The notes under the pieces: model-generated
What the model was told of the DNA's origin: nothing
Database searches by the model: none
Seen by the model: only the letters and a program-made list of their open reading frames with translations
Source: a virus
Length of the DNA: 64,000 nt
IMG/VR virus record: IMGVR_UViG_3300009082_000016
Span: 1-64,000 of that record
Reading direction: 5' to 3' (one strand)
Program-made: the position numbers and the translations under genes
Shown here: piece by piece, positions 12,116 to 52,725 of the stretch
How the letters are laid out: the number at the start of each line of letters is the position of its first letter
How positions within the stretch are numbered: position 1 is the stretch's first letter

Positions 12116-12785
12116 CGCGCACCATCCTCCAGCCCGCCTCGATGCCGTGCCGCCCGCAGAATCCCCCGGGCAGTTCGACCACAAAACGAACAGGCTCCGT
12201 CGACAGGTGCGGCGTGTCACTGTTCGGCTCGGCGGAATCGACGACGTTGGACACCGTCCCGTCAACCTTCACGAACACCATGTCCAGCGGGATCGGGACG
12301 TTCCGCATCCAGAACGAGCGGCGCTCGACGCTGGGGAAGTCGAACAGCATCCCCTGACCGTCGGGGAGATGCTGCCGGCCCATCAATCCGCGGCGAAGCT
12401 CGATGTCCCCTTGGGCCACCTCCACCACCACTCGCACGACGTCGCCTTCGACCGAGTTCGGGTTCACGAAGCGGATGGTGTCAACGCCCGAGGCCCACTT
12501 CCGCAGGGCCCCCACGAAGGCAGCGTACTTCACGGCGGCCGGCGATGAAGAGGCCATTCCCTCCCCCAACCAACGCGCCGCTCGACCGAAAGCTCGACCC
12601 GACTTCCTGACGGCAGGAATCGCACCGTGGTGGACCCGCCGGGCCGTCATCCTCGCCGCCTGGACCGCGTGCGGGAGGGCAGGAACGATCACCTCCCACG
12701 GAAGGTGCGGGAGGGCCATGAACTGCTGGAAGAGCTCGGCAACAACACCACCCTTCTTTCGCATCGGAATCTGGTTTGCCTGCAT
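12108..12785 (-). CDS. DUF192-domain protein with N-terminal K-x-A-containing extension
   Basis: RGLMGRQHLPDGQGMLFDF..SFWMRNVPIPLDMVFV..VVELPGG; preceded by VKYAAF and RKWASG. Confidence 0.8.
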   Translation of the reverse strand: MQANQIPMRKKGGVVAELFQQFMALPHLPWEVIVPALPHAVQAARMTARRVHHGAIPAVRKSGRAFGRAARWLGEGMASSSPAAVKYAAFVGALRKWASGVDTIRFVNPNSVEGDVVRVVVEVAQGDIELRRGLMGRQHLPDGQGMLFDFPSVERRSFWMRNVPIPLDMVFVKVDGTVSNVVDSAEPNSDTPHLSTEPVRFVVELPGGFCGRHGIEAGWRMVRGG

Positions 12786-15700
12786 CAGTATGCTCCCGGC
12801 TTCCCCGAGATCCCCTGCCCGAACCGCTCGTTGTAGGCCATCGCCGAGAAGGGGTTGTAGCCCGAGACGTCGGACTCGTTGCCCTGCAGGGCGGCCTCGA
12901 CGAGCGTGTCGCGCAGGCGCTCGTGGTTCATCTTCGCCAGCCAGTCCTCGGTGTTGGCCAGCGGCGCCGTCTTGATGCCCATCAGGACCGGGTTCACCTT
13001 GATCGGCTTCCGGCCCTTCAGGTCGGTGTGGTTGAGCTCGTTCGCCTTGGAGAGCGTGATGTACTGGCCCTTGACCAGGTCGGGGGCATCGCCCGGATCG
13101 GCGATGACGCCGGTGTTGGTCACGCCGCGGGCCAAGAGCTCGAGATTCCGCCGCCGGATGCCGAACGGCTTGAAGATGCCGTCCATCTCGGTGACGATCT
13201 GATTCCGCACCTGGTCGATGCCACCGATGTCGAGCAGCTCGCGCAGGTCGACGTTCCCATCCGTGATCGGCTTGCCCTTCCGGACCTGGCTGCCGACCTT
13301 GAGGTCGCCCACCAGTTTTCGATTCCCCGGAACGTAGTGGTCGATGTCGGAGCCGCGGCCCGTCGTGATGGTGACGTCGAAGCCGCCGGCGGGGTCTTCC
13401 TTGATGCGGGTGATCTTCCCATCCGCCGAGGCCAGCGTGGCCGGGTTGGAGATCTCCTCCGGGATCTGGAGCAGCTGCTTCACGCGAACCATCGCCGGGC
13501 TGCCCGCCTTCATCCCGGTCCCGCCCGTGTAGACGCCGGCGCCGTGCTTCGACTTGAGCATCAGCTGCGCCATGCGCTCGCCGATCGACTGCCCGGCCAT
13601 CACACCAAGGTTCTCACCCATTTGCGGGAGGTGGCCGTCGGGCATCAACCCGAACGCCTTGGACGAGATGCCCTCGCCGTGCGGGGACGTGAGCGGCGAC
13701 GCCACAATCACCTTCCGGATCCGGGCGTTCTTGAGCCGGTCGATCAGCTCGGAGTCGAGCAGCGTACCGCGCTTGAGGGTGAACTTCGCCGTCTTCACCG
13801 GCTCGACGAGGTAGCGGTCGACGACGTCGGGGTGGTCCGTGTCCATCGCGATGCCCTCATCGGGCAGCTGGTTCGACACGACCAGGGAGTTGCCGACGGT
13901 GTTGACCATCTGCTTGTTGATGTAGCCGGGATCCTGGACGGCGGTCTTCGTCTGGACGATGCCGGTGCGGGCGCCGATCGACGCCAGCCAGTAGCCGGTG
14001 GTATCCAGCCCTTCGCCGTACGACCGGGTCACGGGCTCCAGGACGGGATTGCCCTTGGAGTCGGTCATGAGCACCGGCGCCATGGTCATCTCCTGGAACT
14101 GGGACGACGACGGCTTCACGCCCGACCGCGACATGAGGTAGAGACGGTTGCCGGACGCCTTGGCGTTCTTCGCGTGCTCGGCGAGCATCCCCTTACCAGC
14201 TTCCGCCCACGCCTGGATGGCTTTCTCCTCACGGTCGGGGGCGTCGGTGGCCAAGGCCTCGCGGGCCTTCTTCTCGCCCTCCTTCATGTATCGATCGCGC
14301 AGCGGCTTGTCGGTCTTGAGATCCTTCGACGAGAGGCTGAACAACTCATCGTACACGGCGGCATTGCCGAGCCCCATCAGGGACTGGGCCGTCTGGACGT
14401 ACGCCTTCTTGTCCTTTTTGGCGACCTCCGTCAGCAGCTTCTCGGTGTTGTCCTTCGTGAGCTCGAACTCCGGGTCGAACAGCAGGTTCGGTTTCCGGGC
14501 GATGCCCGGCAACGATTGCCACACCAGGAGCCGGCCGGCAGTCGTCTTCTTCCCGCCGACACTCACGACATCCGTCATCCCGAGCTTCCCGGCGCTGACG
14601 GCGTTCACTGCTGCCTTCACAGAGCCGAAGGACCGGTCGGTTTCCTTCCCGAACTGGGACAGGCGGAAGAGGCCGACCGACATCTCGTTCCGCGGCGTGA
14701 ACATGGGCTTTCCAGTCGCCGGGTTGAGCAGGCTCTCGGAGGGGAACATCTTCCGCGCTTCGCCGACGGCCTTCCCGGAGACCGGGACGTAGAGGCTGAC
14801 CGCGTCGCCGTCGAAGTCGGCGCCCATCGACTCGGCGATGAGCGGCGGGATCTTGATCGCCCGGCCACCGACCAGCTGCGCCTTGAACGCCTGCACGCCG
14901 TACTTGTGGAGCACCGGGTCGCGCTTCATCAGCACGGGCCGGTCTTCCATCACCCGCTCGAGGGCGCGGAGGGCGAGCGGATCGTCCTTCTTCACCATCT
15001 CCTGCGCCTGCAGGGCACCGTTGCCCATGCGGGTCAGCTCTCGCACGACGAACGGGCGGTAGATGTTCTTGGCAACGGGCAACGGGATGCCCAGCTCGTC
15101 GATGGTCAGGTCCGGGTCCGGGATGATGGTCGACCGGGCGGCCAGATCCTGCTTCGACTTGAGCAGCTTCGACTGCACCCAGCTCCACTTCGGGCTGCCC
15201 GACCCGGCGATGACGTCGACGAAACCGCGCTGCTCGACGCCCTGGGTCGTCTTCACCGGGTCCATCACGCCGGCCAGCGAACCGAGCGACTTGTAGAGAG
15301 CGAAACGGGTCTTGCCCCTGCGGGATTCGGGCGTGTCCGGGTCCATGTCCTTGAGCCGCTCGTTCATCACGCCGACGCCCTTGTAGAGCTCGTTGAGCGA
15401 ATCGCGGACGAGGGCACCACTGGGCAGCACCGACATCGGCCGCATCGTCGGCGGGATGACGTACACCTGCTGGGACATGTACGCTTCGGTCGGGCTCATG
15501 CCCGTCTGCTTGAGCGCCGTCAGGTAGCGGTACTTCCTGACCGTCTGGTCGAGCTGTTGGCCCTCGAGATTCGGGATGCGGTCCCGGAGCTCCTTGATCT
15601 CCTTCTTCACGTCGATGGCCGAGAGGACCGACTTGACCGCCTCACCACCCGTCAGGGCGTTCGGGTCCTTCCGGTCGACCAGCTTCCCGTCTTTCGTGAG

Positions 15701-18700
15701 CCCGACCGTCCCGGCGATGACCCCGTGCAGATCCTTCTGCTTGAGGCCCGTCAAGGCCAGGACACCACGCTCGAAGAACGGGTTGGGCAGCGACTCCGCC
15801 AACGTGATGTTCGCAGGGTGCTCGCCCATGATCCCGCCCGTCACCTGCGGGTCGAACAGGCCGCCGTCCTCCGGCTTCAGGTCTTCGGCGCGGAGCATGA
15901 GCCCCGGCCGCTTCAGCTCGCCGTGGCTGGAGTCCAGGACCTGCTGGTCCGTCGTGGGGATCAGCTTCACGCGGGTCCCCTTCTTCTCCAACTTCACGCC
16001 GAGGCCCTTCAGGTACTCCTCGAACTTCGCGTGGGCGAACGTCAACTTCGGCGGCGGCAACGGCTGCCCCAACTGCACCGCACGCCAGAGCTCATCCGCC
16101 TGATCGGCATCGGCCTTCCAGGTGTGACTCTCCCGCAGGATCTCGCGGGAGCCATGGGCCAGGAGCGCCATGTTACCGAGGCCGCCGAGCGCCTGGGCCC
16201 CGCCGCCGTGCCCGCCCTTCGGTTGGCGGTTGACGTCGTAGCTGAAGCCTGGCCCACCGGCGCGGGAAGCCATCTTGCGGTCGACCTGGTGACGCTGCTT
16301 GAGCACGTAGGCGTAGCCGACTTCAGCTTTGCCCAACATCCGTCCGGTCGTGGGGTCGGTGACCTCGTCCTCTTCATCCACCCCGAGCTTGTCGAGCGAC
16401 TGCCGGGTGACCTCGCCGTAGTCGACGCCGGGGACGAAGTTCGGCACCTTGATCGGCGTGCCGATCTTCTTCGCCATCTTCGCCGTAGCCAACTCATAGA
16501 CCTGACCGGCGGCAACACGGGCGGCGACGCCGTGCGGGTTGATCGCCAGTTCGATGGGGCCATCCTTCGTCCGCGGCATCTCCTCGTCGGGGCGGATGTC
16601 GACCACGATCCCCTTGATGCCGTGGCGGGTGGTGACCTTGTCGCCGATCTGCAGCGGTTCCTGGGTCCGGACGTGAACCTTCACGGTCCCGGTCGGCGTA
16701 TGGTGGACACGGATGACCTCTCCGGCAACGTCCTGGTCCCAGGTGAGCGCGGCGTTCTGATACGGCTTGGCCAGAGAGCGGTGCATCCGCTTCATGGCCA
16801 AAGCTTCGTTCGTGTGCTCGATCGGGCGCAGACCCAGCACGAGCGGGTCGCCCGGCTTCACGATCGTCCCCGGCTTCACGATGCCGGAGCGGTCGACCAT
16901 CTTGTACTGATCGGTCGTGAACGCCGTCGGGTAGTACGCCTGGAACTTCTTCGGGTCAACGATCTCCTGCTCGTCCGGGAGCGCGTCGATCTTGTGCAGG
17001 TGCTCGCTGGTCAACTTCTTCGCGCCGCCCTCCGACATCACGACCGCGTCCTCGTAGGTGCGGCCGGGAATCGGGATGAGCGCCGTTCGGAGGTTGGTCC
17101 CCAGGGCAAGCACGCCGCCCCGGGTGAAGTTGGAGTCGGCCAGCATCTGGTTCTTTCGCACCATCTGGCCCGGCTTCACCAGCGATTCCTCGTGGATGAG
17201 CTCGCGCTTTCCAGTCAGCGGGTAGTTCTGGTACAGCGGGACCGTGTGCATCTTGCCGGACGTCGAGCGGATGCGGACCTCGCCGTTCTTGATGGACGTC
17301 ACCTTGCCGGTCACGGGCGACAGCGGCAGTGTCTCACGGCCGACCATCTCCTCCATGCTTTCCCGGGAAGAGGAATCAACAGCGACCTGGACCAGCGGGG
17401 CCTCGCGCGTCGTGAGCGGGATGGCCTGCGACATGTGACGCGACGCCATCTCGACACGGCCGGGGTTGGTGTTCTGCACGAAGGGGACAAGCGCCGTGCC
17501 CATGCCCAGCAGCAGGCCCGGGTTGGTCACGATGTACTCGACCTTCTCCGGGTCGACGCGAACGAACTTGTTGCCGATGCCCGACACCCGGACCTTCTTG
17601 TTGACCGGGACCCACTTCTTGCCTTCCTTCCGGTACTGGTCAGGCATTGCCACGACCGAGGTTTCAAAGACGGTGGGGTCGACATTCTCGTACTTCTTCG
17701 TCCGGGTGTTGTAGAGCGTCGTCCGCGGCGTGGTCCCGTCCTTCATCAGGCCCATGGCGAGCTGCAGATTGACGCCGACGTTCTGTCCTTCCGGCGTATC
17801 GAGCGGGTCGATGAAAGCGACGTGGGACGGGTTGACCGCCTTTGCCTCGGAATGCTCCAGGGCATAGGCGCTGCCGGCCTCGCCGAGGATGGTGCTCCGC
17901 ATCGACGAGCGGATCATGTCGACGGGGTTGGTCTGCTCACCGAGCTGGCTCAGCGGAGAGCCGGTGAAGAAGCCTCGAATGGGCCAGTGGAACATGTTGC
18001 CCCGCACGGCCAGGTCCACCCGGTCATGCCGGTCGACTGCGTTCTTGAGCGACCGGGTCTTGTACTGCCCGAACTTCTTCACCGAGAACGCGAGATGATC
18101 ATCGATGCCGATGAGGTTCTTGAACTTCAGGCTGTCGCGGTCGTCAGGCTCCGAGTTGCCGCGGGAGACGGACAGGGCCCGCTTGGAGGCCTGGAGCAGG
18201 AGCTCCGGGGTGACCTGCCGATACGACTTCCCAAGCGTGATCTTCGTCGTGTCAGGGTCCATCGTCAACGAGCTCAGCGCGTCGCGGACCTGGAGCGCGT
18301 CGCCCGGCTTGCCGAAGGCCCGACCGAGCTTCCCGAAGGCGGACTCCGCCCGTTTCGCCGTGACGTCGTTCGCCTTGGCAATCTCGTCACCCCAAGCGCG
18401 GGCGATGACCGAGTTGCTGATGCCCATGGCGTTGAGCACGGGCTTGAGCGGGACGGTCGATCCGCCCGTCTTCAGTTTGAACGCCTTCTGCGCGGCGTCG
18501 AACTCGATGTTGAGGCTGCGCTCCGGGGTGACGATGCTGGAAACGACCGACCGGGCCTTCGGGTAGGTGAAAACGCCCGGCCGTCCCTTCCACAGGTGGT
18601 CGACGTAGTACTCCTTGCCGTCGACGATGTAGCCCCGGGCAGCCGTCACCGCCGGCAGCGTGCCCAGCGGGACCTCCCCGCGGGACTTCACCTTCCCGGT

Positions 18701-18946
18701 GGCTGCATCGCGGAGGGTGAACCGACCGACCAGCGGTACGCCCCACGTCTCGTCGTTGAGCCGGGCGTTCAACTGGGAGTCCACGTCCCGCATGTCCGGC
18801 TCTTTCGAGTACCGAATGTCCTCGAGCTCGAGCACGTTCCGCTTCCCGATGATGGGGAAAACGCCTTTGACCGTCTCCACCAGGCGATTCCGGAGGTTTT
18901 CGAACATCCCACGCGGGTCAGCAGCGTACGGGGGCGGCTTCGCCAT
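12785..18946 (-). CDS. rpoBC: Single-chain multisubunit-type (two-barrel) DNA-directed RNA polymerase, beta-beta' fusion, 2053 aa
   Basis: Beta motifs: DTPEGQNVG, YEDAVVMSE, GDKVTTRHGIKG, YVLKQRHQVDRKMASR. Beta' motifs: VIPPTMRP, RDPVLHKYGVQAF, catalytic GADFDGD (DFDGD at 14804-14818), bridge helix, trigger loop GQSIGE..QLMLKSKH. Confidence 0.95.
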   Translation of the reverse strand: MAKPPPYAADPRGMFENLRNRLVETVKGVFPIIGKRNVLELEDIRYSKEPDMRDVDSQLNARLNDETWGVPLVGRFTLRDAATGKVKSRGEVPLGTLPAVTAARGYIVDGKEYYVDHLWKGRPGVFTYPKARSVVSSIVTPERSLNIEFDAAQKAFKLKTGGSTVPLKPVLNAMGISNSVIARAWGDEIAKANDVTAKRAESAFGKLGRAFGKPGDALQVRDALSSLTMDPDTTKITLGKSYRQVTPELLLQASKRALSVSRGNSEPDDRDSLKFKNLIGIDDHLAFSVKKFGQYKTRSLKNAVDRHDRVDLAVRGNMFHWPIRGFFTGSPLSQLGEQTNPVDMIRSSMRSTILGEAGSAYALEHSEAKAVNPSHVAFIDPLDTPEGQNVGVNLQLAMGLMKDGTTPRTTLYNTRTKKYENVDPTVFETSVVAMPDQYRKEGKKWVPVNKKVRVSGIGNKFVRVDPEKVEYIVTNPGLLLGMGTALVPFVQNTNPGRVEMASRHMSQAIPLTTREAPLVQVAVDSSSRESMEEMVGRETLPLSPVTGKVTSIKNGEVRIRSTSGKMHTVPLYQNYPLTGKRELIHEESLVKPGQMVRKNQMLADSNFTRGGVLALGTNLRTALIPIPGRTYEDAVVMSEGGAKKLTSEHLHKIDALPDEQEIVDPKKFQAYYPTAFTTDQYKMVDRSGIVKPGTIVKPGDPLVLGLRPIEHTNEALAMKRMHRSLAKPYQNAALTWDQDVAGEVIRVHHTPTGTVKVHVRTQEPLQIGDKVTTRHGIKGIVVDIRPDEEMPRTKDGPIELAINPHGVAARVAAGQVYELATAKMAKKIGTPIKVPNFVPGVDYGEVTRQSLDKLGVDEEDEVTDPTTGRMLGKAEVGYAYVLKQRHQVDRKMASRAGGPGFSYDVNRQPKGGHGGGAQALGGLGNMALLAHGSREILRESHTWKADADQADELWRAVQLGQPLPPPKLTFAHAKFEEYLKGLGVKLEKKGTRVKLIPTTDQQVLDSSHGELKRPGLMLRAEDLKPEDGGLFDPQVTGGIMGEHPANITLAESLPNPFFERGVLALTGLKQKDLHGVIAGTVGLTKDGKLVDRKDPNALTGGEAVKSVLSAIDVKKEIKELRDRIPNLEGQQLDQTVRKYRYLTALKQTGMSPTEAYMSQQVYVIPPTMRPMSVLPSGALVRDSLNELYKGVGVMNERLKDMDPDTPESRRGKTRFALYKSLGSLAGVMDPVKTTQGVEQRGFVDVIAGSGSPKWSWVQSKLLKSKQDLAARSTIIPDPDLTIDELGIPLPVAKNIYRPFVVRELTRMGNGALQAQEMVKKDDPLALRALERVMEDRPVLMKRDPVLHKYGVQAFKAQLVGGRAIKIPPLIAESMGADFDGDAVSLYVPVSGKAVGEARKMFPSESLLNPATGKPMFTPRNEMSVGLFRLSQFGKETDRSFGSVKAAVNAVSAGKLGMTDVVSVGGKKTTAGRLLVWQSLPGIARKPNLLFDPEFELTKDNTEKLLTEVAKKDKKAYVQTAQSLMGLGNAAVYDELFSLSSKDLKTDKPLRDRYMKEGEKKAREALATDAPDREEKAIQAWAEAGKGMLAEHAKNAKASGNRLYLMSRSGVKPSSSQFQEMTMAPVLMTDSKGNPVLEPVTRSYGEGLDTTGYWLASIGARTGIVQTKTAVQDPGYINKQMVNTVGNSLVVSNQLPDEGIAMDTDHPDVVDRYLVEPVKTAKFTLKRGTLLDSELIDRLKNARIRKVIVASPLTSPHGEGISSKAFGLMPDGHLPQMGENLGVMAGQSIGERMAQLMLKSKHGAGVYTGGTGMKAGSPAMVRVKQLLQIPEEISNPATLASADGKITRIKEDPAGGFDVTITTGRGSDIDHYVPGNRKLVGDLKVGSQVRKGKPITDGNVDLRELLDIGGIDQVRNQIVTEMDGIFKPFGIRRRNLELLARGVTNTGVIADPGDAPDLVKGQYITLSKANELNHTDLKGRKPIKVNPVLMGIKTAPLANTEDWLAKMNHERLRDTLVEAALQGNESDVSGYNPFSAMAYNERFGQGISGKPGAY

Positions 18947-18953
18947 GAGCCAG

Positions 18954-18983
18954 AGCGTACACCGAACCTGCATCTGCAGTCCA
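18954..18983 (-). promoter_or_regulatory. Promoter TGGACT-N18-TACGCT, leaderless RNAP transcript
   Basis: -10 ends 7 nt before ATG 18946; no SD. Confidence 0.7.
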
Positions 18984-32820: not shown

Positions 32821-35800
32821 ATGCAGAGGCTGAATCTCGGTGCCGGTCGCCCGCAGATGCTCGAGACCCCCGACGCGGTTCTGGCAGCCTGCGCCTCCTT
32901 CCGCGAGAAGGGGGTGGTGGCGATCGACACCGAGACGACCGGCCTCGACATCATCCGGGACGCGCCGCTCTTCGTCAGCATGAGTGACGGGGAGCGGCGC
33001 GTCGCCCTGCGGGTCGGAAGCGAGGAGTTCGCCGCCCTCGAAAGCCTGGTGGGCGACCCGCAGACCGTGAAGATCTTCCACAACTGCCTGACCGGGGACA
33101 GTAGGGTCTGGAAGGCGGACGGCACTCGGAAGACGCTGAGCAGGATGGTGGCCGAAAGGGACCCCGGACCCGTCTACTGCTTGAACGAGAAGACGGGGCA
33201 GGTCGAGGTCAGACCGGTCGTCGGGTGGGTGAACAACCCGCCGCGGGAGTGGAAGGACTGGCTCCGCATCCGCGTACGAGGCAAGGGCTGTCTGAGGCTC
33301 ACGAAGGACCATGAGGTCCTTACGGAACGTGGCCGCGTCCGGGCGGATCGGATCCAGATCGGGGACAGGATTCGCACGACCCGGCCGAACCTGTCCGCGG
33401 CCGAGCGGTCCCTCATCTACGGCTCCCTCCTGGGAGACATGTCCATCCGCCGGCAGAAGGGCGCAAAGTGCCGGAGCCCGATGCTTGTAGTCTCTCACGC
33501 CAGCGGGCAGTTCCCATACCTCTCGTTGAAGCAGATGGTGTTCAACGGCTCCCTGGGTGCCGTTCTGGAAAAGCCCTCCTTCCGTCACGGTGGGTTCTCC
33601 AACTCCAAGGGTACGCTGATGGCCCGGCTTCGTACCCAATCGGACCCCAGGCTTCTCGACGTGGAGAACGCCTGCCTCCGGCAGGGAAAGAAGACTCTGA
33701 CGCAGCCATGGTTGGAGCGCCTGGATGTTCCCGCCGTCGCGATCTGGATCTGCGACGACGGTTCCACGCAGGGGTGTTCGATGAACGCCTGCGTGACGGC
33801 CCTGGGGAAGACCGGTGCCGGGCAGCTGGCCGCAAACTTCCGGAAGCGCGGGTGGCCGGCCAGGATCGTGCCACGCAAGGACGGGCATCTGTACCTGCGA
33901 ATCTCGGGCTCGCAGGGTCCACTCATCGATCCCCGAATCGACCGATTCTGGGAACAGGTGGCGCCCTACATCCCGACCTGCATGAGCTACAAGGCCCCGA
34001 AGAAGTACCAGCACCTCTGCTCCGATTCCTACTGGTACTCCTCGGTGCCCGACAGCTCCTGGTCCGACGAAGTGACCGAGGTCGGTCCGCTCCTCCGGAA
34101 GTCGGGGACGAAAGGTCGGTACCGAGGGTACAGCCCGCGAAAGTACCGGAAGGGCCTCCGGCAGTACTGCCTCACCGTCGCAGGGCACTCCAACTTCTTC
34201 GCCGAAGGTCTGGCCGTCTCGAACTGCAAGTTCGACGTCCACATGCTGGCCAACGTCGGGATGAAGGTGAAGGGCCCCTGGCATGACACCCTCGTCATGG
34301 CCACCATGTCGGACACCAGCCGGTCGTCGAAGAGGCTGAAGGACCTGCTCGTCAGCCTGTACGGCCCGGACGACGAGCGGAGCATCCGCTACTCCGACTT
34401 CTCGGAGACGTTCGGGAAGGTGACGAAGAAGAAGACGGCGAAGCAGCTGCTCGAATCGGCCCCGATCGAGAAGGTGCTCCAGTACGCCACCTGCGACGCC
34501 TGGGGCACGTTCCAGATCTACCAGACGCTCCAGAAGCAGCTCAAGCGCATCCACAACTGGCGCGGCCAGGATCTCTGGCAGCTGTACACGTCCATCGAGG
34601 TTCCCTTCACCGAGGTGCTCTGGGGCATGGAGCGCCGGGGCGCGAAGATCGACGTTGGGAAGCTCGAGCAACTACGAGAGGACTGGACGAAGGAGATCCA
34701 GGACACGGAGCTGAAGTTCGCCCAGGCGGTCGGCCGACCCATCAACATCAACTCCGTTCCGCAACTGCGGGACTACTTCCTGCTCGAGCGAGGTCTCAAG
34801 ACCATCCGCCGCACCGTCGGCGGCGAGTCGGGCGAAGCCAAGGCCTCGCTCGACAAGGTCACCATGGGCATGTGGGTCGAACAGGGCGTGACGGAAGCGG
34901 CGCTCGTGCTTCGCTACCGGCAGCTCAGCAAGCTCGTCGGCACCTACGCCGACCCGCTGCTCAAGTTCCGTGACACGAACGACCGGGTCCACACGTCGTA
35001 CACGCAGATGGTGGACACGGGCCGGCTCGCATCCGACGAGCCGAACCTGCAGAACATCCCCGCCCGCTCGAAGGACGGGAAGAAGATCCGCGAGTGCTTC
35101 ATCGCGGACGACGGTTTCGAGCTGCTGGTCCGCGACTACGACCAGCTGGAGATGAAGCTGGCCGCCGCCCTCTCGGGCGACCCCAACATGATCAAGATCA
35201 TCCTGGAGGGGAAGGACATCCACTCCGGGAACGCGGCCATCGCGTTCGACATCCCGTACGAGGGCATCATCGCCGCCTCCCGGGCGAAGGACACGCTGGG
35301 CAAGGCGGCGCAGGCCGGCCTGCCCGGCGAGCCGCTGACCGACGAGCAGGTGTACTACCTCGTCTGCCGAGACCGCGCGAAGACCATCGGGTTCGAGACG
35401 CTCTACGGCGGCGGCATTCGCAAGCTGGCCGTCCTGCTGAAGTGCAGCGTCGACAAGGCCATCGAGATCCAGACCAAGTTCTTCGCCCCGTTCCAGGTCC
35501 TGCTCAAGTTCATCGAGCGCACGCACCAGGAGGCCCGGTCGACCCTGAGCGTCCAGACCATCACCGGCCGCTTCCGCACGCTGCCGGCCGCGGCGCTCGA
35601 CAAGACGCCGGCCCAGGCTGAAGCCTACCGACAGAGCTTCAACACCAAGATCCAGGGCAGCGGCGCCGACGCCGTGAAGCTGGCCATGATCCTGGTGTGG
35701 TTCGACGCGACGCTGCAGAAGCTGGGCAACCAGCTCGAGCTGCAGGTCCACGACGAGCTCGTCAACGAAGTTCCGAAGGAAACGGGCGAGGAGATCGACC

Positions 35801-35910
35801 GCCTCGTCGGCGAGCACATGCAGCACAGCCTCGAATCCGTGGGACTGAAACTGGCCGTGCCCCTGACCTCGTCGGGCAAGCGGGCGCAGAACTGGGCGGC
35901 CGCGAAATGA
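32821..35910 (+). CDS. polA: DNA polymerase family A (3'-5' exonuclease plus polymerase) with intein
   Basis: IDTETTG, TGRLAS..PNLQNIP, DYDQLEMK, RAKTIGF..LYG, IQGSGAD, QVHDEL. Confidence 0.95.
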   Translation: MQRLNLGAGRPQMLETPDAVLAACASFREKGVVAIDTETTGLDIIRDAPLFVSMSDGERRVALRVGSEEFAALESLVGDPQTVKIFHNCLTGDSRVWKADGTRKTLSRMVAERDPGPVYCLNEKTGQVEVRPVVGWVNNPPREWKDWLRIRVRGKGCLRLTKDHEVLTERGRVRADRIQIGDRIRTTRPNLSAAERSLIYGSLLGDMSIRRQKGAKCRSPMLVVSHASGQFPYLSLKQMVFNGSLGAVLEKPSFRHGGFSNSKGTLMARLRTQSDPRLLDVENACLRQGKKTLTQPWLERLDVPAVAIWICDDGSTQGCSMNACVTALGKTGAGQLAANFRKRGWPARIVPRKDGHLYLRISGSQGPLIDPRIDRFWEQVAPYIPTCMSYKAPKKYQHLCSDSYWYSSVPDSSWSDEVTEVGPLLRKSGTKGRYRGYSPRKYRKGLRQYCLTVAGHSNFFAEGLAVSNCKFDVHMLANVGMKVKGPWHDTLVMATMSDTSRSSKRLKDLLVSLYGPDDERSIRYSDFSETFGKVTKKKTAKQLLESAPIEKVLQYATCDAWGTFQIYQTLQKQLKRIHNWRGQDLWQLYTSIEVPFTEVLWGMERRGAKIDVGKLEQLREDWTKEIQDTELKFAQAVGRPININSVPQLRDYFLLERGLKTIRRTVGGESGEAKASLDKVTMGMWVEQGVTEAALVLRYRQLSKLVGTYADPLLKFRDTNDRVHTSYTQMVDTGRLASDEPNLQNIPARSKDGKKIRECFIADDGFELLVRDYDQLEMKLAAALSGDPNMIKIILEGKDIHSGNAAIAFDIPYEGIIAASRAKDTLGKAAQAGLPGEPLTDEQVYYLVCRDRAKTIGFETLYGGGIRKLAVLLKCSVDKAIEIQTKFFAPFQVLLKFIERTHQEARSTLSVQTITGRFRTLPAAALDKTPAQAEAYRQSFNTKIQGSGADAVKLAMILVWFDATLQKLGNQLELQVHDELVNEVPKETGEEIDRLVGEHMQHSLESVGLKLAVPLTSSGKRAQNWAAAK
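33085..34224 (+). mobile_element. Intein (380 aa) with LAGLIDADG endonuclease, inserted in the ExoII motif
   Basis: FHN|CLTGDS...LTKDHEV...YGSLLGDMS...WICDDGS...NFFAEGLAVSN|CKFD. Confidence 0.9.
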
Positions 35911-45732: not shown

Positions 45733-46187
45733 AGGTGACGACCCAGGAATGTGCCGGCTGCTCGGAGCAGGTCATCGCGACCCGTAGGCTCTGCTTCAAC
45801 CCCTCGGGCAAAGCCTACGTCTGCCGCAGCTGCCGGCACTGGCATCTCGGGTTCGCCTCCAAGCCCGACCTCTGCCACGCGTGCGGAGAGAAGGAGCTGT
45901 ACGAGAAGGACATGGACCGGGCGCTCTGCCCGGAATGCACGAGGAAGCTCGAGGAGGCCGACAAGATCGTGAAGGCAGGCGGGGTCTACTGGTCCTGCTC
46001 CGGCTGTCACTCGGAAGGCGTCCTCAAGCCGGACCACCCGCTGGCGAAGAAGATGCGGGCCACGTACCGCGTCCAGCCGCCCGATCCGATCGTGCTCAAC
46101 CTCGAGCACTGCCCGTTCTGCAAGGAGAAGGAGACGGAGAAGGAGAAGAAGGCGCCGGCCCACCGCGTTGACACCGCGGCGAACTGA
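45729..46187 (+). CDS. Multi-Zn-finger protein
   Basis: Six CxxC pairs; GTGA overlap. Confidence 0.7.
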   Translation: MKVTTQECAGCSEQVIATRRLCFNPSGKAYVCRSCRHWHLGFASKPDLCHACGEKELYEKDMDRALCPECTRKLEEADKIVKAGGVYWSCSGCHSEGVLKPDHPLAKKMRATYRVQPPDPIVLNLEHCPFCKEKETEKEKKAPAHRVDTAAN

Positions 46188-46197
46188 CTGCTACCAT
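46168..46197 (+). promoter_or_regulatory. Promoter TTGACA-N18-TACCAT with TGn extension (leaderless)
   Basis: -10 ends 7 nt before ATG 46205. Confidence 0.8.
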
Positions 46198-46204
46198 CCG
46201 GCTC

Positions 46205-48055
46205 ATGGATCCCCTGTTCGCTAAGTTGGCGATCTCCTCCCACATGCTGCGAGGAGGGAAACTGCTGAAGTCCAGGGGCAAGTCCACCCCGATGCGTCTG
46301 GCGACGCTCCTGAAGAAGATGGGTGCCACTGGGCCTGCGGCACCGTCGCCGATCACGAACACGCCGGGAGCCGGGAAAGTCACCGCACCTTCCAGCAAGG
46401 GGCTCGGCGGGGCCAGCTACAAACTGACCCCGCCGCCCCCTGTTGGAGGGATGCAGCTGCAACGCAATCTTTTTGCCAAGTCGCAGAAGCCGGGCGAGTT
46501 CCACGGCAATACGACCGTCGGGACCATGAATCCGGCGGGAACGTCGGCGCAGGACCTCGGTTTGCCACCCGTGGTCGCGAGCCTGCGAATCGGGCGCATC
46601 GACAAGTTGGGCGCGGACCCGGCGCCCCTTCCGCCTCCCCCGGTTCCGCCGGTCAGCGGCAACCTTCCGCCACCGCCTGCGCCGGCGGTGCCGAACTACA
46701 TCCCGCCCGCCCCGGACGTACCGACCGCCCCTCCGCCGTCGACGAGCACCCCCTCCGGGTTCTCCGACATCCCTGGCGGGGGTGGTGGCCAGGTCTGGAC
46801 TCCGCCGACCGATTGGACGACCCCCCGTCCGTGGGGCGACCAGAGCGGATGGCAGAAGACGAAGGACATCGGCCTTCAGGCTCTCGGTGGTGCCCTCAAC
46901 CCGTTCGGCATGGGCACGACCGGCATGCTGGCAACGGCCCCCCTGATGATGATCCCCGGTGTCGGCGCACCCCTCGCGGTCGGGATGGCTTTGGGCGGCG
47001 CCGTCTGGAACCCGATCAAGAACTACATCGACCGTACGCAAGGCGGAACGGCCATCGGTCAGATCCGCAAGGATATGCCCACGACCACAGGCGAAGCGCA
47101 GAACGCCACGGGCATCGAGTCGAAAGAGCAGTTCCTCGAGCGGTACGGCAACGACCTCCCGACTGCCATGGCGGACCCCGTGCTTCGGAGCCTCGCTGTC
47201 AACTTCGGCATCGCCCCCGGGGGCTTCTCCATCTCGAACGACATCAACAAGGGCGAATGGATGGAACGCGAGGGCGGCGGCGGGGAGTGGTCCGGTGAAG
47301 CGGCCGCCTGGCAACAGGCGATGGCGGAGAAGGCGATGCAGAATCCCGAGCAGTACCCGGAACTGGCAGCCGCACTGGCGCAGAGCCAGGAGGGGAAGAC
47401 CGCGGCGCTCGTCGTCCGCAACCGCATCGCGTTCCAGCGGGCGATGCCCAAGACGGCCAGCCCGATCGCTGCGGCCCTGCGTGCGGCCCAGCGGATGCAG
47501 GAGAAGAGGGCCGACATCGCGTGCCGTCTCGATCGCGACGCGGTGCAGGAGATCCTGAAGAAGGCGGGCTTGGAGAAGCAGTCTTTCGGTCTGGTCGGCA
47601 AGGGCCTTCTCGGCCTCGGCCTCGGTGCCTACGGCCTCGGATCGGCCATCACCCCCAGCGCCCAGGAAGCACCGGGAGTCGGCGGCCTCGGTCGATTCGG
47701 ACTCGGCCTGGCCGGCCTGTACGGCGGCTACAAGATGGCCGACAAGGTCGGACTCCCCGGCTGGCTCGGCGCCATGGTCGGCGCCGGCGTCCTGCCCGGC
47801 CTCGTCGGCAGCGTGACCAGCGGCGGCCAGGGGGGCTTGATGGGTCCTGGTGGCCTCACGGGTCTCACGCAGAACCCGCTGCTCACCGGCGCCCTGGGCT
47901 ACTGGCTTGCCAACAAGTACCCGTCGATTGGCAACGCCCTGCCCGGCGGCAAGTGGGGCGGCGCGGCTCTCGGCGCTCTCCTCGGTCCCAGCCTCATGGG
48001 CGGGATGGGCAACATGATGGGCATGGGCGGCGGGATGCGCGGCCCGTACGGCTGA
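46205..48055 (+). CDS. Pro/Gly-rich putative ejection protein with glycine-zipper helices
   Basis: AKLAI, PKTAS, EKRAD, EKQSF; long GxxxG-rich C-terminus. Confidence 0.75.
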   Translation: MDPLFAKLAISSHMLRGGKLLKSRGKSTPMRLATLLKKMGATGPAAPSPITNTPGAGKVTAPSSKGLGGASYKLTPPPPVGGMQLQRNLFAKSQKPGEFHGNTTVGTMNPAGTSAQDLGLPPVVASLRIGRIDKLGADPAPLPPPPVPPVSGNLPPPPAPAVPNYIPPAPDVPTAPPPSTSTPSGFSDIPGGGGGQVWTPPTDWTTPRPWGDQSGWQKTKDIGLQALGGALNPFGMGTTGMLATAPLMMIPGVGAPLAVGMALGGAVWNPIKNYIDRTQGGTAIGQIRKDMPTTTGEAQNATGIESKEQFLERYGNDLPTAMADPVLRSLAVNFGIAPGGFSISNDINKGEWMEREGGGGEWSGEAAAWQQAMAEKAMQNPEQYPELAAALAQSQEGKTAALVVRNRIAFQRAMPKTASPIAAALRAAQRMQEKRADIACRLDRDAVQEILKKAGLEKQSFGLVGKGLLGLGLGAYGLGSAITPSAQEAPGVGGLGRFGLGLAGLYGGYKMADKVGLPGWLGAMVGAGVLPGLVGSVTSGGQGGLMGPGGLTGLTQNPLLTGALGYWLANKYPSIGNALPGGKWGGAALGALLGPSLMGGMGNMMGMGGGMRGPYG

Positions 48056-48089: not shown

Positions 48090-48119
48090 TTGTCCTCGGG
48101 CCTGACCCTGATGTATCCT
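48090..48119 (+). promoter_or_regulatory. Promoter TTGTCC-N18-TATCCT (leaderless sigma gene)
   Basis: -10 ends 7 nt before ATG 48127. Confidence 0.7.
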
Positions 48120-48126
48120 GAGGGCC

Positions 48127-48849
48127 ATGAGCGGCACTTCGACCCAGGATCTCCAGCTCTGGAACCAGTGGAACCAGGGCGGCCGCAAGCGCGGAGACCT
48201 CGAACCGCTGCTCGACAACCTCGATCCGCTCGTTCACAACGCCGTCAACCAGTACGCCGGGAAGGTGAACATCCCGTCGGAGGCCATCCAGTCGAAGGCG
48301 GAAGACCTCGCGATCAAGGGGATCAAGTCCTTCAACCCCGGGAAGGCCCAGCTGTCCACGCACGTCGCCTGGCAGCTGCGCGGCCTCAACCGCTTCGTGA
48401 CGACCTACCAGAACCCGGCCCGCATCCCGCAGCACCAGACCCACAAGATCCAGGCGCTGATCACGACGCGGGACCGGATGACCTCCGCGATGGGGCGGCC
48501 GCCGACCGACTACGCGCTGGCGAGAAAGCTGCACTGGACGCCGCGGCAGGTGGGCTCGCTCCAGAAGGGGCTCTCCCGCCGAGTGCTCGACCCGGAGATG
48601 TTCAAGCTGCGCGACCCGCGCTCGTTCTCGCCGTCCCGCTTCAAGGAGGTCATGCAGCTGTTGCCCTCCGAGCTCGGGCCGCGGGAGAAGTTCGTGTTCA
48701 AAGCTACGTACGGGATCGGCCGCCAGAAACCGCTGTCGGCGTCCCAGATGGCAAAAAAGTTGCGGACGTCGCAGGCGACGATCTCCCGCACGCGAAAGCG
48801 GGTCGCCGGCATCATCGCCCGCTACATGAACGTCGGAGGTGAACGATGA
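48127..48849 (+). CDS. Sigma70-family (group 3, SigB/F/FliA-like) sigma factor
   Basis: Region 2 (PLVHNAVNQY..IKGIKSFNPGKAQLSTHVAWQLR..ARIP), region 3 (MGRPPTDYALARKL), region 4 HTH (LGPREKFVF..YG..SQMAKKL..SQATISR). Confidence 0.85.
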   Translation: MSGTSTQDLQLWNQWNQGGRKRGDLEPLLDNLDPLVHNAVNQYAGKVNIPSEAIQSKAEDLAIKGIKSFNPGKAQLSTHVAWQLRGLNRFVTTYQNPARIPQHQTHKIQALITTRDRMTSAMGRPPTDYALARKLHWTPRQVGSLQKGLSRRVLDPEMFKLRDPRSFSPSRFKEVMQLLPSELGPREKFVFKATYGIGRQKPLSASQMAKKLRTSQATISRTRKRVAGIIARYMNVGGER

Positions 48850-49481
48850 ACCTGGTGCGCCAAGTGGAGATCGCGTCCTTCTGTGGAGCGATGGAGAAGT
48901 GGGCGCAGGACCAGGGGTTCAGCGGCACGCTCGCGGACCTCATGAAGCCGGTCGTGTACGGGATCGGTGGCTACGCCGCGTCCCGCGCCCTCGGCGGCGA
49001 GCGTGCGACGGGCATCCCGGACTATCTGCTCGGCCCCGCGCTCGGTGTCGGCGCCGCCATGCCAGCTATGGGCGCCATCGGCCGCAGCATCAGCAACTAC
49101 CGGGCCCGCAAGCAGATGGCCCATCTCGATGCCCAGCAGCAAGCCCAGCTCGAACAGGCACTCGCCCGGGAGCAGGAACTCCAGGCCCAGATGCAGGCCC
49201 CGTCCCAGGACATGCTGAACCAGCTGGCCGCCTACCAGATGGGCGTGCCGCCGGACGCGATGATGGGCCAGAAGATGGGCCAGCTGCGCGTCCCGGCCCA
49301 GCAAGCTGACCAGATCGCGACCAACGCGCAGCAGCAGTACATGCAGGGCCAGCAGCAGCAGATGCAACAGCAGATGCAGCAGGCCGCGATCGCCCAGCAG
49401 ATCAAGGGCCAGTTCCGCGGCCTCCAGCAGAACCAGGCGCGTCAGGCGCGTCAGCAGCCGCAGCAGGGAGCCGGCCGGTGA
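48846..49481 (+). CDS. Putative ejection protein: K-x-A leader, Gly-rich helices, Gln-rich tail
   Basis: ASFCGAMEKWAQ; GGAGGTG SD. Confidence 0.7.
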   Translation: MNLVRQVEIASFCGAMEKWAQDQGFSGTLADLMKPVVYGIGGYAASRALGGERATGIPDYLLGPALGVGAAMPAMGAIGRSISNYRARKQMAHLDAQQQAQLEQALAREQELQAQMQAPSQDMLNQLAAYQMGVPPDAMMGQKMGQLRVPAQQADQIATNAQQQYMQGQQQQMQQQMQQAAIAQQIKGQFRGLQQNQARQARQQPQQGAGR

Positions 49482-49672
49482 ACGAGAAGCTCACCAAGCT
49501 CAAGGAAGCCGTCACCGCCTGGCACAGCACGGCGAAGAAGGAGCTGGAGTCGGAAGCGGCATTCCTCGAGAAGGTGCAGGCCAGCGGGGATGACGTCCAC
49601 ATCTCCCGGTACACGACCGGGGCGTCGTACTCCGACCTCATCGCCGACACGATCGCGGAGCTGACGGCATGA
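49478..49672 (+). CDS. Small hypothetical protein
   Basis: Overlaps both neighbours. Confidence 0.65.
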   Translation: MNEKLTKLKEAVTAWHSTAKKELESEAAFLEKVQASGDDVHISRYTTGASYSDLIADTIAELTA

Positions 49673-50616
49673 ACTTCGAGATCACCAGGGTTCGAACCGA
49701 TCTCCTGTTGTACGCCCAGGACGTTGCCACCCTGCTGACGCTCTACACGCACATCCGGATCGACCGCGCGATGTCCGGCGGCGGCCCGTGGTCACCGCTC
49801 ACGGACACGACCGCAAAGCCGGCGTCCACCCGCTGCCGGAAGGACGGGCCGTACGCCATCAGCGGGAAGTACCTGAACCTCACGCTGCCGGACGGGACGC
49901 TGTTCAGCCACATCTTCACGACGCCGGACCCGGTGTCGGCGACGGACGCGATGACGGAGCTCAACGGGGCGTCCGCCCAGCTCGACTGCGTGGTCGACGG
50001 GGACACGCTCGTGCTCCGCACGCTCGACACGGGCACCGACGCCTGCCTGAAGGTGGATGGCGGGGACGCCTGCGTGAACCTGGGTGTCGCGCTCAACGAC
50101 ACCGCGTTCGGCCTCGCCGGCGACGTCCTGCTGGTCGCGGGCCAGGTGATCTACCCGTTCACCGACGAGAACGGCGATTCGGACTGGTCGTACCGCTACC
50201 GCTTCATCAACGCTGCGCCGCCGCGGGAGTCGGAGCCGCTGTTCTCGTACCCAGGTACGGAACTCAGCCTGGACCTCGACCTGCTCGCCGTCGGTCACGC
50301 CCACGCGGTCGACACCGACGGCCGGGCTGCAGCGGGCGCCATCGCTCATGTCGGCAACCGCTACGTCCCGCCCTCCGTCTCCGGAAGGCTGGTGATCGGC
50401 GGCCAGTCGAAGGTGATCGACCGACACGGCGACGTCTGGTTCCCGCTGGTGCGGGGGGCGCAGATCGAGTTCTGGATCGCCGGGACCCCGCTCCACCGCA
50501 TCATCGAGGTGCCCGACGCGGCCGAGTTCGACATGCTCGACCCCAGCCTGGTACGCGACGATCCGTGGGGCATCGTCGTGCCCCCCTACACCGGACTCCC
50601 GAGGACGACGCCATGA
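49669..50616 (+). CDS. Putative virion structural protein
   Basis: Acidic, beta-rich; FTDENGDSDWSYRYRF. Confidence 0.65.
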   Translation: MNFEITRVRTDLLLYAQDVATLLTLYTHIRIDRAMSGGGPWSPLTDTTAKPASTRCRKDGPYAISGKYLNLTLPDGTLFSHIFTTPDPVSATDAMTELNGASAQLDCVVDGDTLVLRTLDTGTDACLKVDGGDACVNLGVALNDTAFGLAGDVLLVAGQVIYPFTDENGDSDWSYRYRFINAAPPRESEPLFSYPGTELSLDLDLLAVGHAHAVDTDGRAAAGAIAHVGNRYVPPSVSGRLVIGGQSKVIDRHGDVWFPLVRGAQIEFWIAGTPLHRIIEVPDAAEFDMLDPSLVRDDPWGIVVPPYTGLPRTTP

Positions 50617-51470
50617 CACTCGAACAGGTGAGGTGGGAGGCCTTCCAGAAGGAGGCCCAGTGGGCCTTGTTGGGAAGGCTCCTGGGAGGGGCGGGGAAAC
50701 TGATGGCCCGGGCAGGAAGCCAAGGGGGGCTGCTGGCCCGGATGGGCGGCACCGCGGCCAAAGCCGGCACCCGAATGGTGGAGTCCTCTCCGCTGCGGAA
50801 TCTCCTTCAGAACGCCCCACGAGTCCTGCAAGGGAAACCCTTCCTCTCCCCGCGAAACATGGCGGCCGGCGAAACCATGATCGACCCCCTTGGGCGCATG
50901 AGAACAGGCCAGGCTCTCCCGCTCTGGTTCAAACGCCGCCCCCTTCCGCAGATCGCCCCCCTTCGGCCCAGCTATGAAGGCGTGACAAGGGCGACGATCA
51001 TCAAGCCCCAGACGCCCGTGAACCCGATCGGGCCGACGGCCTACCAACCTCCCACACCGGCCCAGGTCAACCCGCTAGGCAGGACAGTCGGCAGGACGGC
51101 AGTGGGTCCCATGCCTAGCGCCCCCGGGGTAACTCAGTCCAGCATCCCCCAGGTGACGCAAGCCGGGATCCTTCCGCCCGCTCCCACGGTGAGCACGATT
51201 CCTGTGACCCCGCCGATTCCCGGGACGGCCGCGTACAGTCGGAACATGTTCAGCTCGGGCGGCGCCGCCATTCGGGCAGGAACCCTTCAACGATCGATGA
51301 ACAACGTCCTGGGCCCGACCGGAACGGCTTTTGCTCGGGCACCCAACCCCATCGATCAGACCTTCCGCAGCCTTTCCAGTTCGCCCTTGCTCTCCAAGTT
51401 CAACTCGCTCATCGAGCAGGTGGAACAGGCCACCTTCCTCGAGGCGATCATGCGTCAGAACTCCAGATAG
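50613..51470 (+). CDS. Basic Pro/Gly-rich Cys-free protein with K-x-A leader
   Basis: MTLEQVRWEAFQKEAQWALLGRLLGG; real start is inside ORF-track entry 49788..51470. Confidence 0.65.
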   Translation: MTLEQVRWEAFQKEAQWALLGRLLGGAGKLMARAGSQGGLLARMGGTAAKAGTRMVESSPLRNLLQNAPRVLQGKPFLSPRNMAAGETMIDPLGRMRTGQALPLWFKRRPLPQIAPLRPSYEGVTRATIIKPQTPVNPIGPTAYQPPTPAQVNPLGRTVGRTAVGPMPSAPGVTQSSIPQVTQAGILPPAPTVSTIPVTPPIPGTAAYSRNMFSSGGAAIRAGTLQRSMNNVLGPTGTAFARAPNPIDQTFRSLSSSPLLSKFNSLIEQVEQATFLEAIMRQNSR

Positions 51471-52020: not shown

Positions 52021-52725
52021 CTATTGTTCTACCTCAGGTTGGCTAGCCGCCTGCTTCACCCCACTCGCCAAATCCCACTTGTCTCCCACCCGCTTGGTGA
52101 ACTTGAACAGCGTCGGCTTTCGCTTGATCCCGTGACCGACAGCCTTCTCCTTGTTGATGAGGAGCTTGCCGTCCTGCTTGGTGACCTCGTACGGTTCCTG
52201 CTTCTCTCCCCTGAAGGTGCGCGGACCCGTACACGACTTCAGCTCACCGTGCTGCCTGCTGTGGAAATGCCACGGAACGGACCCGACGGGGAACCCCCTA
52301 GCAGCTAGCTTCAGACTGCCGCTGCGTACCTGCTGCTTGAGGTCGCCAAGGCTGATCTGGCGGATCTTACCGATCGTGATGTGGTGGTGCTTGGCACTGC
52401 GTAGGACGTCCCGCTTCGTACCGAAGTTGAGGTAGACCTTGTGCTCGTCGAACTTGGACGGGTCGTGCCAGTCCATCTTGTCGACCACGTAGGCCCGGCG
52501 CGAGTTCTTGTTGGGGCCGACGAACACGTCGAGTGGATCCTTGTCCGCTCCCATCGTTCCCGGGAACGAGCCGTAGTTGTGCGTGTATCGTTCCCGCTTG
52601 TTGATGAACAACGTCCCGATGGGCCGCTCGATGTTGATATTCAGCCCGTGAATACGGGTCTTCCACCGGGTGACGTCACCTTCCCAGGCTGTCTTGAGGA
52701 ATGCCGACTTCTCGGCTAGCCCCCG
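52021..52725 (-). CDS. Inorganic pyrophosphatase-like (inPase) domain, probably reached by -1 frameshift from the upstream gene
   Basis: HGLNINIERPIG...YGSFPGTMGADKDPLDVFVGP...FDEHKVYL; the domain N-terminus lies upstream of the first in-frame start codon (TTG 52611). Confidence 0.75.
   Translation of the reverse strand, partial: RGLAEKSAFLKTAWEGDVTRWKTRIHGLNINIERPIGTLFINKRERYTHNYGSFPGTMGADKDPLDVFVGPNKNSRRAYVVDKMDWHDPSKFDEHKVYLNFGTKRDVLRSAKHHHITIGKIRQISLGDLKQQVRSGSLKLAARGFPVGSVPWHFHSRQHGELKSCTGPRTFRGEKQEPYEVTKQDGKLLINKEKAVGHGIKRKPTLFKFTKRVGDKWDLASGVKQAASQPEVEQ

Follow-up and report, generated by a model that had tools for sequence, protein, structure and literature searches.

The virus record IMGVR_UViG_3300009082_000016 of IMG/VR is 172,723 bp long, carries direct terminal repeats and has an estimated completeness of 100%. 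Its first 64 kb (hereafter the window; coordinates marked G000 are whole-genome coordinates of the same record) encode, at positions 48127 to 48849, a sigma factor of the sigma-70 family, together with an RNA polymerase (RNAP) whose beta and beta' parts form a single chain. The data presented here indicate that this sigma factor is very probably the partner of the phage's own RNAP, while the question of whether it is also delivered by the virion is evenly balanced. Nearly all genes of this genome, the GC content of which is ~66%, are located on the minus strand, with the exception of a plus-strand block from ~26.2 to 51.5 kb, at the end of which the sigma gene is found; the block also encodes a helicase and a family-A DNA polymerase, both with inteins, and a RecA-like protein.

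The sigma gene starts with the ATG at 48127, upstream of which the reading frame extends for just five more codons. Its product matches PHROG_351 ("RNA polymerase sigma factor") at E 9e-9, and a profile built with 67 sequences of its family matches in the PDB the SigA, RpoS and RpoD chains of holoenzymes at E ~1e-17, in an alignment that spans profile positions 37-230 and, consequently, regions 2.1 to 4.2. The AlphaFold2 (AF2) model shows a mean predicted local distance difference test score (pLDDT) of 90.6, with a low-pLDDT linker at residues 150-170 between the domains, which is the site of region 3.2, and the best 50 Foldseek matches of this model are sigma chains in holoenzyme structures. 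Curated thresholds are not reached by the window protein, which scores 32.6 bits with TIGR02937 (cut-off 42.9) and remains below threshold with every Pfam sigma model; its membership in the family is concluded from the PHROG_351 match, the profile comparison with the PDB and the fold. The product is a complete sigma factor with regions 2, 3 and 4 and the size of group 3, and these data agree with the sequence-only reading of the window, which had recognised the three regions and had also drawn attention to its Cys-free and Lys/Arg-rich composition (0 Cys in 240 residues, 16.7% Lys plus Arg, isoelectric point (pI) of 10.99).

Region 2, which is responsible for core binding and -10 recognition, is aligned by the family profile to SigA regions 2.1-2.4 and corresponds to helices 22-95 of the AF2 model, and the Pfam Sigma70_r2 model gives no match in the window protein. 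The segment LSTHVAWQLR..YQNPARIPQH is taken here to be the equivalent of FSTYATWWIRQ..RTIRIPVH of Escherichia coli. The canonical core-binding signature of region 2.2 (DLxQEGxxGL) is absent; in its position, the family consensus shows A..A.A......A..TYDP, and the window protein reads AEDLAIKGIKSFNP. Judging from the sequence, the loss of this signature may represent an adaptation to a divergent clamp helix or to a core different from that of the host. The Pfam Sigma70_r3 model matches weakly at residues 108-145, and exceeds its cut-off in several relatives. Regarding region 4.2 (-35 recognition and flap binding), SigA region 4 is aligned up to position 230, with helix-turn-helix (HTH) matches at 197-226, and residues Q216, A217, S220 and R221 of the recognition helix presumably occupy the positions of R584, E585, R588 and Q589 in sigma-70.

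The RNAP reading frame (12785-18946/18991, 2053-2068 residues) contains Rpb2_6, Rpb2_3, Rpb1_1, Rpb1_2 and Rpb1_5 domains. Sigma regions 2 and 4 dock on the clamp helices and on the flap tip of a core enzyme, respectively, and both elements are retained in the phage chain, as shown by its alignments to the clamp-helix region of beta' and to the flap of beta, tip helix included. The genome yielded no RpoA-like gene. To evaluate how the two genes are distributed, IMG/VR was searched with an alignment of the sigma factor, which retrieved 19 records with a homologue (including that of the Salmonella phage Arash), and then with an alignment of the RNAP, which retrieved at least 484 loci (the relatives are IMG/VR loci labelled L003-L026 and so on, and the representatives of the sigma family are labelled P0xxx). 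The RNAP is present in 17 of the 19 records obtained with the sigma, the two lacking it being 21% and 61% complete, and in the five records that are at least 90% complete. In the opposite direction, among 23 records of at least 100 kb obtained with the RNAP, 18 hold the sigma, the five without it are 48-71% complete, and the 13 that are at least 90% complete all contain it. In total, sigma and fused RNAP appear together in 18 of 18 near-complete related genomes over both search directions, a co-occurrence that the sequence-only reading had suggested examining. Moreover, L022-L024 encode both proteins on one strand, with the sigma gene ~3 kb upstream of that for the RNAP. The reciprocal co-occurrence, the adjacency in these three relatives and the retention of the docking elements are the reasons to consider that the sigma factor is, with high probability, the partner of the phage RNAP.

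The absence of Cys and the basic pI are traits of the sigma family as a whole, which comprises 1306 cluster representatives. For the window sigma by itself, the absence of Cys has a p of ~0.05 given a genomic Cys content of 1.25%, and the signal is found at the level of the family. Among 165 representatives with identities down to 25%, 149 are Cys-free, when only 4-27% would be expected at ordinary Cys frequencies; the mean Cys content of the family is 0.05%, the median pI is 9.5, and the pI is higher than 9 in 79% of the members. The window RNAP has no Cys in 2053 residues, while the RNAPs of five relatives hold 4-7. This avoidance is not general to these genomes, because the family of the 315-residue neighbour of the sigma factor retains 2-4 Cys. 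Some members of the sigma family are fused to other domains, such as a C-terminal InPase pyrophosphatase (P0119), an N-terminal NUDIX, a C-terminal DUF7831 or a C-terminal KilA-N (P0156, P0109 and P0122 being the other members with fusions), and an InPase-type domain is also encoded in the window, 3 kb from the sigma gene. Two relatives (G037 and G039, loci L105 and L109) encode two sigma-family copies each, one of which is far more divergent (E 5e-23 and 1e-17).

Table 1. Genes and candidate promoters discussed in the text. Coordinates are those of the virus record, whose first 64 kb constitute the window.
Coordinates	Strand	Feature	Characteristics or basis
12785..18946	-	Single-chain beta-beta' RNA polymerase	2053 residues from ATG 18946; Cys-free; domains, family search
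18954..18983	-	Candidate leaderless promoter of the RNAP gene	TGGACT (18983-78), N18, TACGCT (18959-54), N7, ATG 18946
46168..46197	+	Strong leaderless promoter	TTGACA-N18-TACCAT, N7 to ATG 46205
46205..48055	+	616-residue Gly/Pro-rich, mostly disordered protein	Leader MDPLFAKLA; Gly 17.2%; sequence, leader survey
48090..48119	+	Candidate internal leaderless promoter of the sigma gene	TTGTCC (48090-95), N18, TATCCT (48114-19), N7, ATG 48127
48127..48849	+	Sigma-70-family factor, 240 residues	Group-3-like (regions 2, 3, 3.2 linker, 4); Cys-free, pI 11.0
48846..49481	+	211-residue protein	Conserved leader ..AMEKWA|QDQ; hydrophobic segment; Q-rich tail; Gly 10.4%
49478..49672	+	64-residue small conserved protein	Sigma operon
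49669..50616	+	315-residue beta-sandwich protein	Pilin- or FliD-like
50613..51470	+	285-residue protein	Leader ..WEAFQKEA|QWA; final gene of the operon
52021..52611	-	InPase-type pyrophosphatase domain	3 kb from the sigma gene
67743..68441 (G000)	-	ECF-type sigma factor, 232 residues	Regions 2 and 4; 3.7 kb beyond the window end
114706..115152 (G000)	-	Region-4-only HTH protein, 148 residues	Sigma70_r4-type, 30 bits (exceeds cut-off)

The neighbours of the sigma gene in its operon are summarized in Table 1. The 616-residue protein encoded upstream, which exhibits hydrophobic C-terminal segments resembling glycine zippers, has no match in Pfam, PHROGs or the protein atlas and is, from its sequence, a putative head-internal or ejection protein. 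The ATG of the 211-residue gene overlaps the stop codon of the sigma gene (ATGA). Thus, the Gly-rich K-x-A proteins that the sequence-only reading had described are indeed present on both sides, and so is the coupling of the sigma gene to one of them. The 315-residue protein is the best conserved neighbour, and it is also found in the sigma-containing structural operon of the distant relatives L010 and L020; comparison of its structure revealed only a generic beta-sandwich or pilin-like fold (template modelling score ~0.2). No homology at BLAST level was detected between the flanking genes of the sigma and gp8-gp14 of Arash. Elsewhere in the plus-strand block, the family-A DNA polymerase (32821-35910) holds an intein with a LAGLIDADG endonuclease inside, and the ResIII/Helicase_C helicase (26234-28093) conserves intein-splicing remnants.

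Two other genes of the record are related to sigma factors. One of them encodes a sigma factor of the extracytoplasmic function (ECF) type that scores 49.2 bits with TIGR02937 (cut-off 42.9), passes the cut-offs of Pfam r4 and r4_2 and has an ECF sigma as its best PDB match. This gene is placed in the baseplate module, with a gp25-like gene (68438-69088) on one side and a Baseplate_J gene (63333-67739) on the other; it was not found at the corresponding place in the loci of the relatives, and its product contains 2 Cys. The other encodes an HTH protein with region 4 only, which might act as a transcription factor or be what remains of a sigma.

Promoters of a leaderless design precede both the sigma and the RNAP genes, with the same succession of a -35 box, 18 nucleotides, a -10 box, 7 nucleotides and ATG, and the sequence-only reading had rightly noted this shared architecture. 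A T-run is present 3' of the upstream stop codon at 48055. The boxes of the sigma gene itself are weak, with 8/12 consensus matches, and fall below threshold in a generic sigma-70 scan. Stronger promoters of the same design are found ahead of 46205, 26153, 10936 and an unannotated open reading frame at ~28115, the first of which probably heads the operon that holds the sigma gene. Genome-wide, the gap between TANNNT and the coding start peaks at 6-7 nucleotides (18 cases vs 1 each at 4, 5, 9 and 10), and TTGACA-N16-19-TANNNT occurs 6 times vs 0.8 in shuffled sequences. A scan with a position weight matrix, which is circular because the matrix was seeded with the same sites, detected only ~8 sites; those of the form TTGAC(A/G)-N18-TAnnnT are located at 1158, 10943, 18954-18983, 26161, 28108, 46197, 48119 and 59719. 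The stretch at 89-147 kb, with its numerous short genes on the minus strand, showed no convincing site.

This design is kept in relatives whose sigmas are 62-68% identical to that of the window (L003-L007). In L003-L005, a terminator and TTGACG-N18-TACGAT-N7-GTG precede the gene for the Gly-rich protein, and the start of the sigma gene overlaps the stop of the latter, while in L006 and L007 the Gly-rich gene is preceded by TTGACG-N18-TACCAT-N7-ATG and the sigma gene by TGGACC-N18-TACTCT-N6-GTG. On the contrary, only 2 of 80 distant relatives have the leaderless form ahead of the RNAP gene, indicating that this promoter is lineage-specific. A clade-wide promoter of the TATAAG type was also considered and rejected, as TAT[ACG]AG appears in 9 copies vs ~81 in shuffled sequences, none of them promoter-like, and the element is unused in this lineage. 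Enrichment of 7-mers in unannotated stretches yielded Shine-Dalgarno words and no early-promoter word, in a scan weakened by crude gene calls.

The location of the sigma gene in more distant relatives connects it with virion proteins. In 11-12 of them, it lies co-directionally inside a tail/baseplate module, with homologues of G000 85004-88744, 83494-84735 and 79414-83097 on one side and homologues of 72404-73339, 68438-69088 and 63333-67739 (Baseplate_J, PHROG_6) on the other. This placement is found in L009-L021, L026 and Arash, where the gene order from gp4 to gp14 matches and the sigma gp10 follows the cell-wall hydrolase gp8. Because it is co-made with baseplate proteins, the sigma factor would be made late in these relatives.

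Indirect evidence on packaging comes from Arash. Its gp10 is homologous to the window sigma (identities of 29-31% along 85% of the length, with tblastn E values of 9e-12 to 5e-22), and its RNAP chains gp206 and gp216 are homologous to the window RNAP, although the Arash enzyme is made of two chains (1525 + 606 residues) encoded ~5 kb apart, and that of the window phage of just one. Both phages also differ in host and GC content, as well as in the location of the sigma gene, which in the window phage lies in an operon with K-x-A leaders after the replication genes. Proteomics of Arash particles assigned 467 spectra and 24 peptides to gp10, at a coverage of 100%, as well as 3516 spectra to the RNAP beta chain, more than to any other protein, and 1210 to the second chain (PMC10585845). 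When these spectra are divided by the Arash gene lengths, a computation carried out in this analysis, values of 2.0 spectra per residue are obtained for the sigma gp10, 2.3 for gp206, 2.0 for gp216 and 2.4 for the helicase gp217, compared with 4.3 for the major capsid protein and 0.6-1.0 for the baseplate-region proteins gp8, gp13 and gp14, the ribonucleotide reductase (RNR) and the deoxynucleoside monophosphate (dNMP) kinase. The transcription set of Arash looks equimolar and abundant in the particles. The helicase gp217 (OQ632216.1, 141261-142679) is encoded beside the second RNAP chain and may be a fourth member of the packaged set. Arash gp23, annotated as a pyrophosphatase, is also part of the particle proteome (PMC10585845). 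The Yersinia phage YerA41 also has an annotated sigma factor, which belongs to the late class and is associated with particles (PMC7354516).

Further indirect evidence of packaging is provided by N-terminal leaders, in addition to the family-wide Cys avoidance and the domain fusions described above. Among 148 members of the sigma family with the core W..W motif, 88 possess an N-terminal extension, and 42 of these extensions contain a K-x-A word (shuffled sequences give a mean of 18 and a maximum of 27), typically in the form M..NPVEEFL.F..K.A. The same type of leader is found in the genome studied here at the N-terminus of the capsid protein, in adjacent acidic scaffold-like proteins, in a 675-residue protein of the head region and in three neighbours of the sigma gene. 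In the capsid region (G000 168812-172640, minus strand), the N-terminal 26 residues of the capsid protein end in K-x-A words (TKTKTA), and the acidic, Cys-free scaffold-like proteins at 170869 and 171640 contain such words as well. The 675-residue protein (8227-10254, minus strand) holds 13 of them vs 3.1 expected. Most simply, the leader would be a signal for a prohead protease or for capsid targeting. A basic word, (V)R.H.R....GK.V.V..H.R, is also common to sigma factors with long extensions, in which it is placed after the K-x-A leader and before the core (for example, P0026, P0033, P0044, P0086 and P0101, and those of L012-L014 and L017).

According to these data, it is proposed that the sigma factor would be the promoter-specificity subunit of the single-chain beta-beta' RNAP, with region 2 docking on the clamp helices at residues ~1160-1230 of the phage chain, region 4 on the flap tip at residues ~710-730, and the 3.2 linker threading the active-site channel, so that a holoenzyme of two polypeptides would function without alpha or omega. 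Leaderless promoters belonging to the class found ahead of the RNAP gene would drive the sigma gene along with those of putative head-internal proteins, and the sigma would be packed with the RNAP into the virion and delivered with the DNA, starting phage transcription independently of the host enzyme. In this scheme, packaging, ejection, timing and the physical contact between sigma and phage core are all inferred, and the explanation as a whole, a sigma for the phage RNAP that is co-packaged and ejected with the DNA, stands at about even odds of being correct. Somewhat more tentative is its most far-reaching version, in which a minimal two-polypeptide, Cys-free holoenzyme is packed and ejected and the leaderless promoter class ensures its re-synthesis for the next particle. 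The sequence-only reading had proposed that the sigma is made late and travels with the RNAP in the virion, as a two-component holoenzyme. The partnership is upheld by co-occurrence, adjacency and docking elements, whereas the case for co-packaging is one of analogy, drawn from the Arash particles, the tail/baseplate location in most relatives, the K-x-A leaders of other family members and the family-wide Cys avoidance, and the delivery of the window sigma in the virion is about as probable as its opposite. The term two-component calls for the caveat that a second, ECF-type sigma is encoded in the genome; it may be too simple, a sigma cascade being conceivable.

Several observations weigh against this proposal. 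The Arash particles, obtained from a single sucrose gradient, comprised 116 proteins, including RNR and dNMP kinase, and the authors allow for carry-over (PMC10585845). The K-x-A leader is absent from the window sigma, its close relatives, Arash gp10 and the sigma of Vibrio D181. Avoidance of K-x-A would be expected in packaged cargo, since it would meet a prohead protease cutting at this word, and the RNAP is not depleted in it, in a comparison that is not decisive (13 words vs 12.2 expected; the figures are 0 vs 1.2 for the sigma and 144 vs 195 for the family cores). The tail/baseplate operon does not include the sigma gene in this genome or in its close relatives, where a separate operon after the replication block holds it, and all leaderless sites are confined to the first 60 kb of a 173-kb genome. 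Finally, this promoter class looks, in sequence, like the sigma-A-type leaderless promoter of a high-GC bacterium that could serve as host, and it is therefore silent on which holoenzyme reads it and when. A T7-like scheme, in which the host RNAP reads the leaderless promoters early and the phage holoenzyme, with an unpackaged sigma, then transcribes the remainder, is fitted equally well by such host-like promoters, with boxes near TTGACA and TAnnnT, a spacer of 18 nucleotides and no leader, as is typical of high-GC bacteria. The small regulon, the missing leader of the window sigma, the position of its gene after the replication genes on the same strand and the evident non-structural enzymes in the Arash particle list also favour this scheme. 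Against it stand the abundance of the sigma and of both RNAP chains in Arash particles, where they rank among the top proteins and have equal density, the location of the sigma gene within the tail/baseplate operon in most relatives, and the head-protein type of leader on about half of the family members with an extension; family-wide Cys avoidance has no obvious reason in a purely cytoplasmic factor, and the promoter class also precedes genes that do not look early (those of the 616-residue Gly-rich protein and of the DUF6582 protein at 24948-26153). The unpackaged alternative is regarded as a serious rival, less probable than virion delivery.

The other two explanations assign a different role to the sigma factor. 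It might redirect the host core RNAP to middle or late promoters, in the style of T4 gp55 or SPO1 gp28/gp34, with the phage RNAP using another factor or none. Such is the textbook role of phage sigma factors, all DNA-binding regions of a cellular sigma are present, and sigma homologues are, according to reviews, missing from phage multisubunit RNAPs (PMC13282480, PMC7824862). This role is difficult to reconcile with the strict two-way co-occurrence with the RNAP, which extends from high-GC uncultured lineages to Salmonella and Vibrio, with the proximity of both genes in three relatives, with the loss of the canonical region 2.2 signature, and with a density of the sigma in Arash particles equal to that of the RNAP chains, and it is considered improbable. 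Alternatively, the ECF-type sigma could be the packaged initiation factor, leaving the sigma encoded at 48127 for later intracellular transcription. The gene for the former is flanked in the baseplate module by the gp25-like gene and the Baseplate_J gene. Distant relatives have the family sigma at another point of the same module, between its hub-like and wedge genes, and in this lineage the gene at 48127 has moved out of the module. However, the ECF-type gene was not found in the loci of the relatives, its product has 2 Cys and is no hallmark of the clade, and it is the sigma encoded at 48127 that represents the clade-universal, Cys-free homologue of a protein detected in Arash particles; this alternative is likewise considered improbable.

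The proposed co-packaged holoenzyme can be compared with several known systems. The nearest is that of Arash, whose gp10, like the window sigma, has no K-x-A leader; in that case, sigma and RNAP have been detected in particles, with no mechanism given (PMC10585845). YerA41 also encodes its own beta/beta'-type RNAP, and its annotated sigma factor, g019, is encoded among structural genes and is late and particle-associated, like the RNAP subunits (PMC7354516), although its RNAP is much more distant from that of the window. Neither the sigma-family profile A1 nor the sigma70-ECF superfamily model (the latter above its cut-off) found a match in vB_Yru_GN1, a sequenced relative of YerA41, or in RP13, TM30, IME392 and Va2. 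The YerA41 factor is probably outside this sigma family, and an analogue rather than a homologue.

phiKZ gp68, of the non-virion RNAP, and AR9 gp226 are likewise phage-encoded specificity subunits for phage RNAPs of the multisubunit type. Contrary to the protein described here, a recognisable sigma-70 factor that accompanies a one-chain core, they show no sequence similarity to sigma-70, and their cores are divided into 4-5 chains. Jumbo phages of the phiKZ/AR9 type additionally carry a virion RNAP (PMC7824862, PMC13282480). T4 gp55 and SPO1 gp28/gp34 are, like the window sigma, phage proteins of the sigma-70 family that change promoter choice, but T4 and SPO1 have no RNAP of their own, whereas the window sigma, devoid of the canonical region 2.2, strictly co-occurs with a phage RNAP; the presence of a complete beta-beta' RNAP separates this genome from the class of phages that only redirect the host enzyme. 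The N4 virion RNAP is a T7-like enzyme and crAss-like gp66 is a highly divergent two-barrel enzyme. The logic proposed for the window phage is the same as for these two enzymes, both produced late and packed for ejection, after which they transcribe early genes. They are single polypeptides that need no separate factor of the sigma-70 type, while the window phage pairs its RNAP with a sigma.

The sigma-RNAP system of this clade is already annotated and has been seen in particle proteomics, in Arash. According to reviews up to 2026, phage multisubunit RNAPs have no sigma homologue, and phages with sigma factors have no polymerase of their own (PMC7824862, PMC13282480). The clade described here breaks this rule, with a one-to-one association between a real sigma-70-family factor and a phage beta-beta' enzyme. 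If the two are indeed self-sufficient as a pair and delivered by the virion, they would be the simplest known transcription machine of the bacterial type, with two chains, no zinc sites and no alpha dimer, and would offer a tractable model for rewired recognition between sigma and core. Such a pair would also explain a possible escape from host transcription control and from RNAP-directed defences, and a very large, mostly uncultured clade of phages would be independent of its hosts in transcription as early as the first minute.

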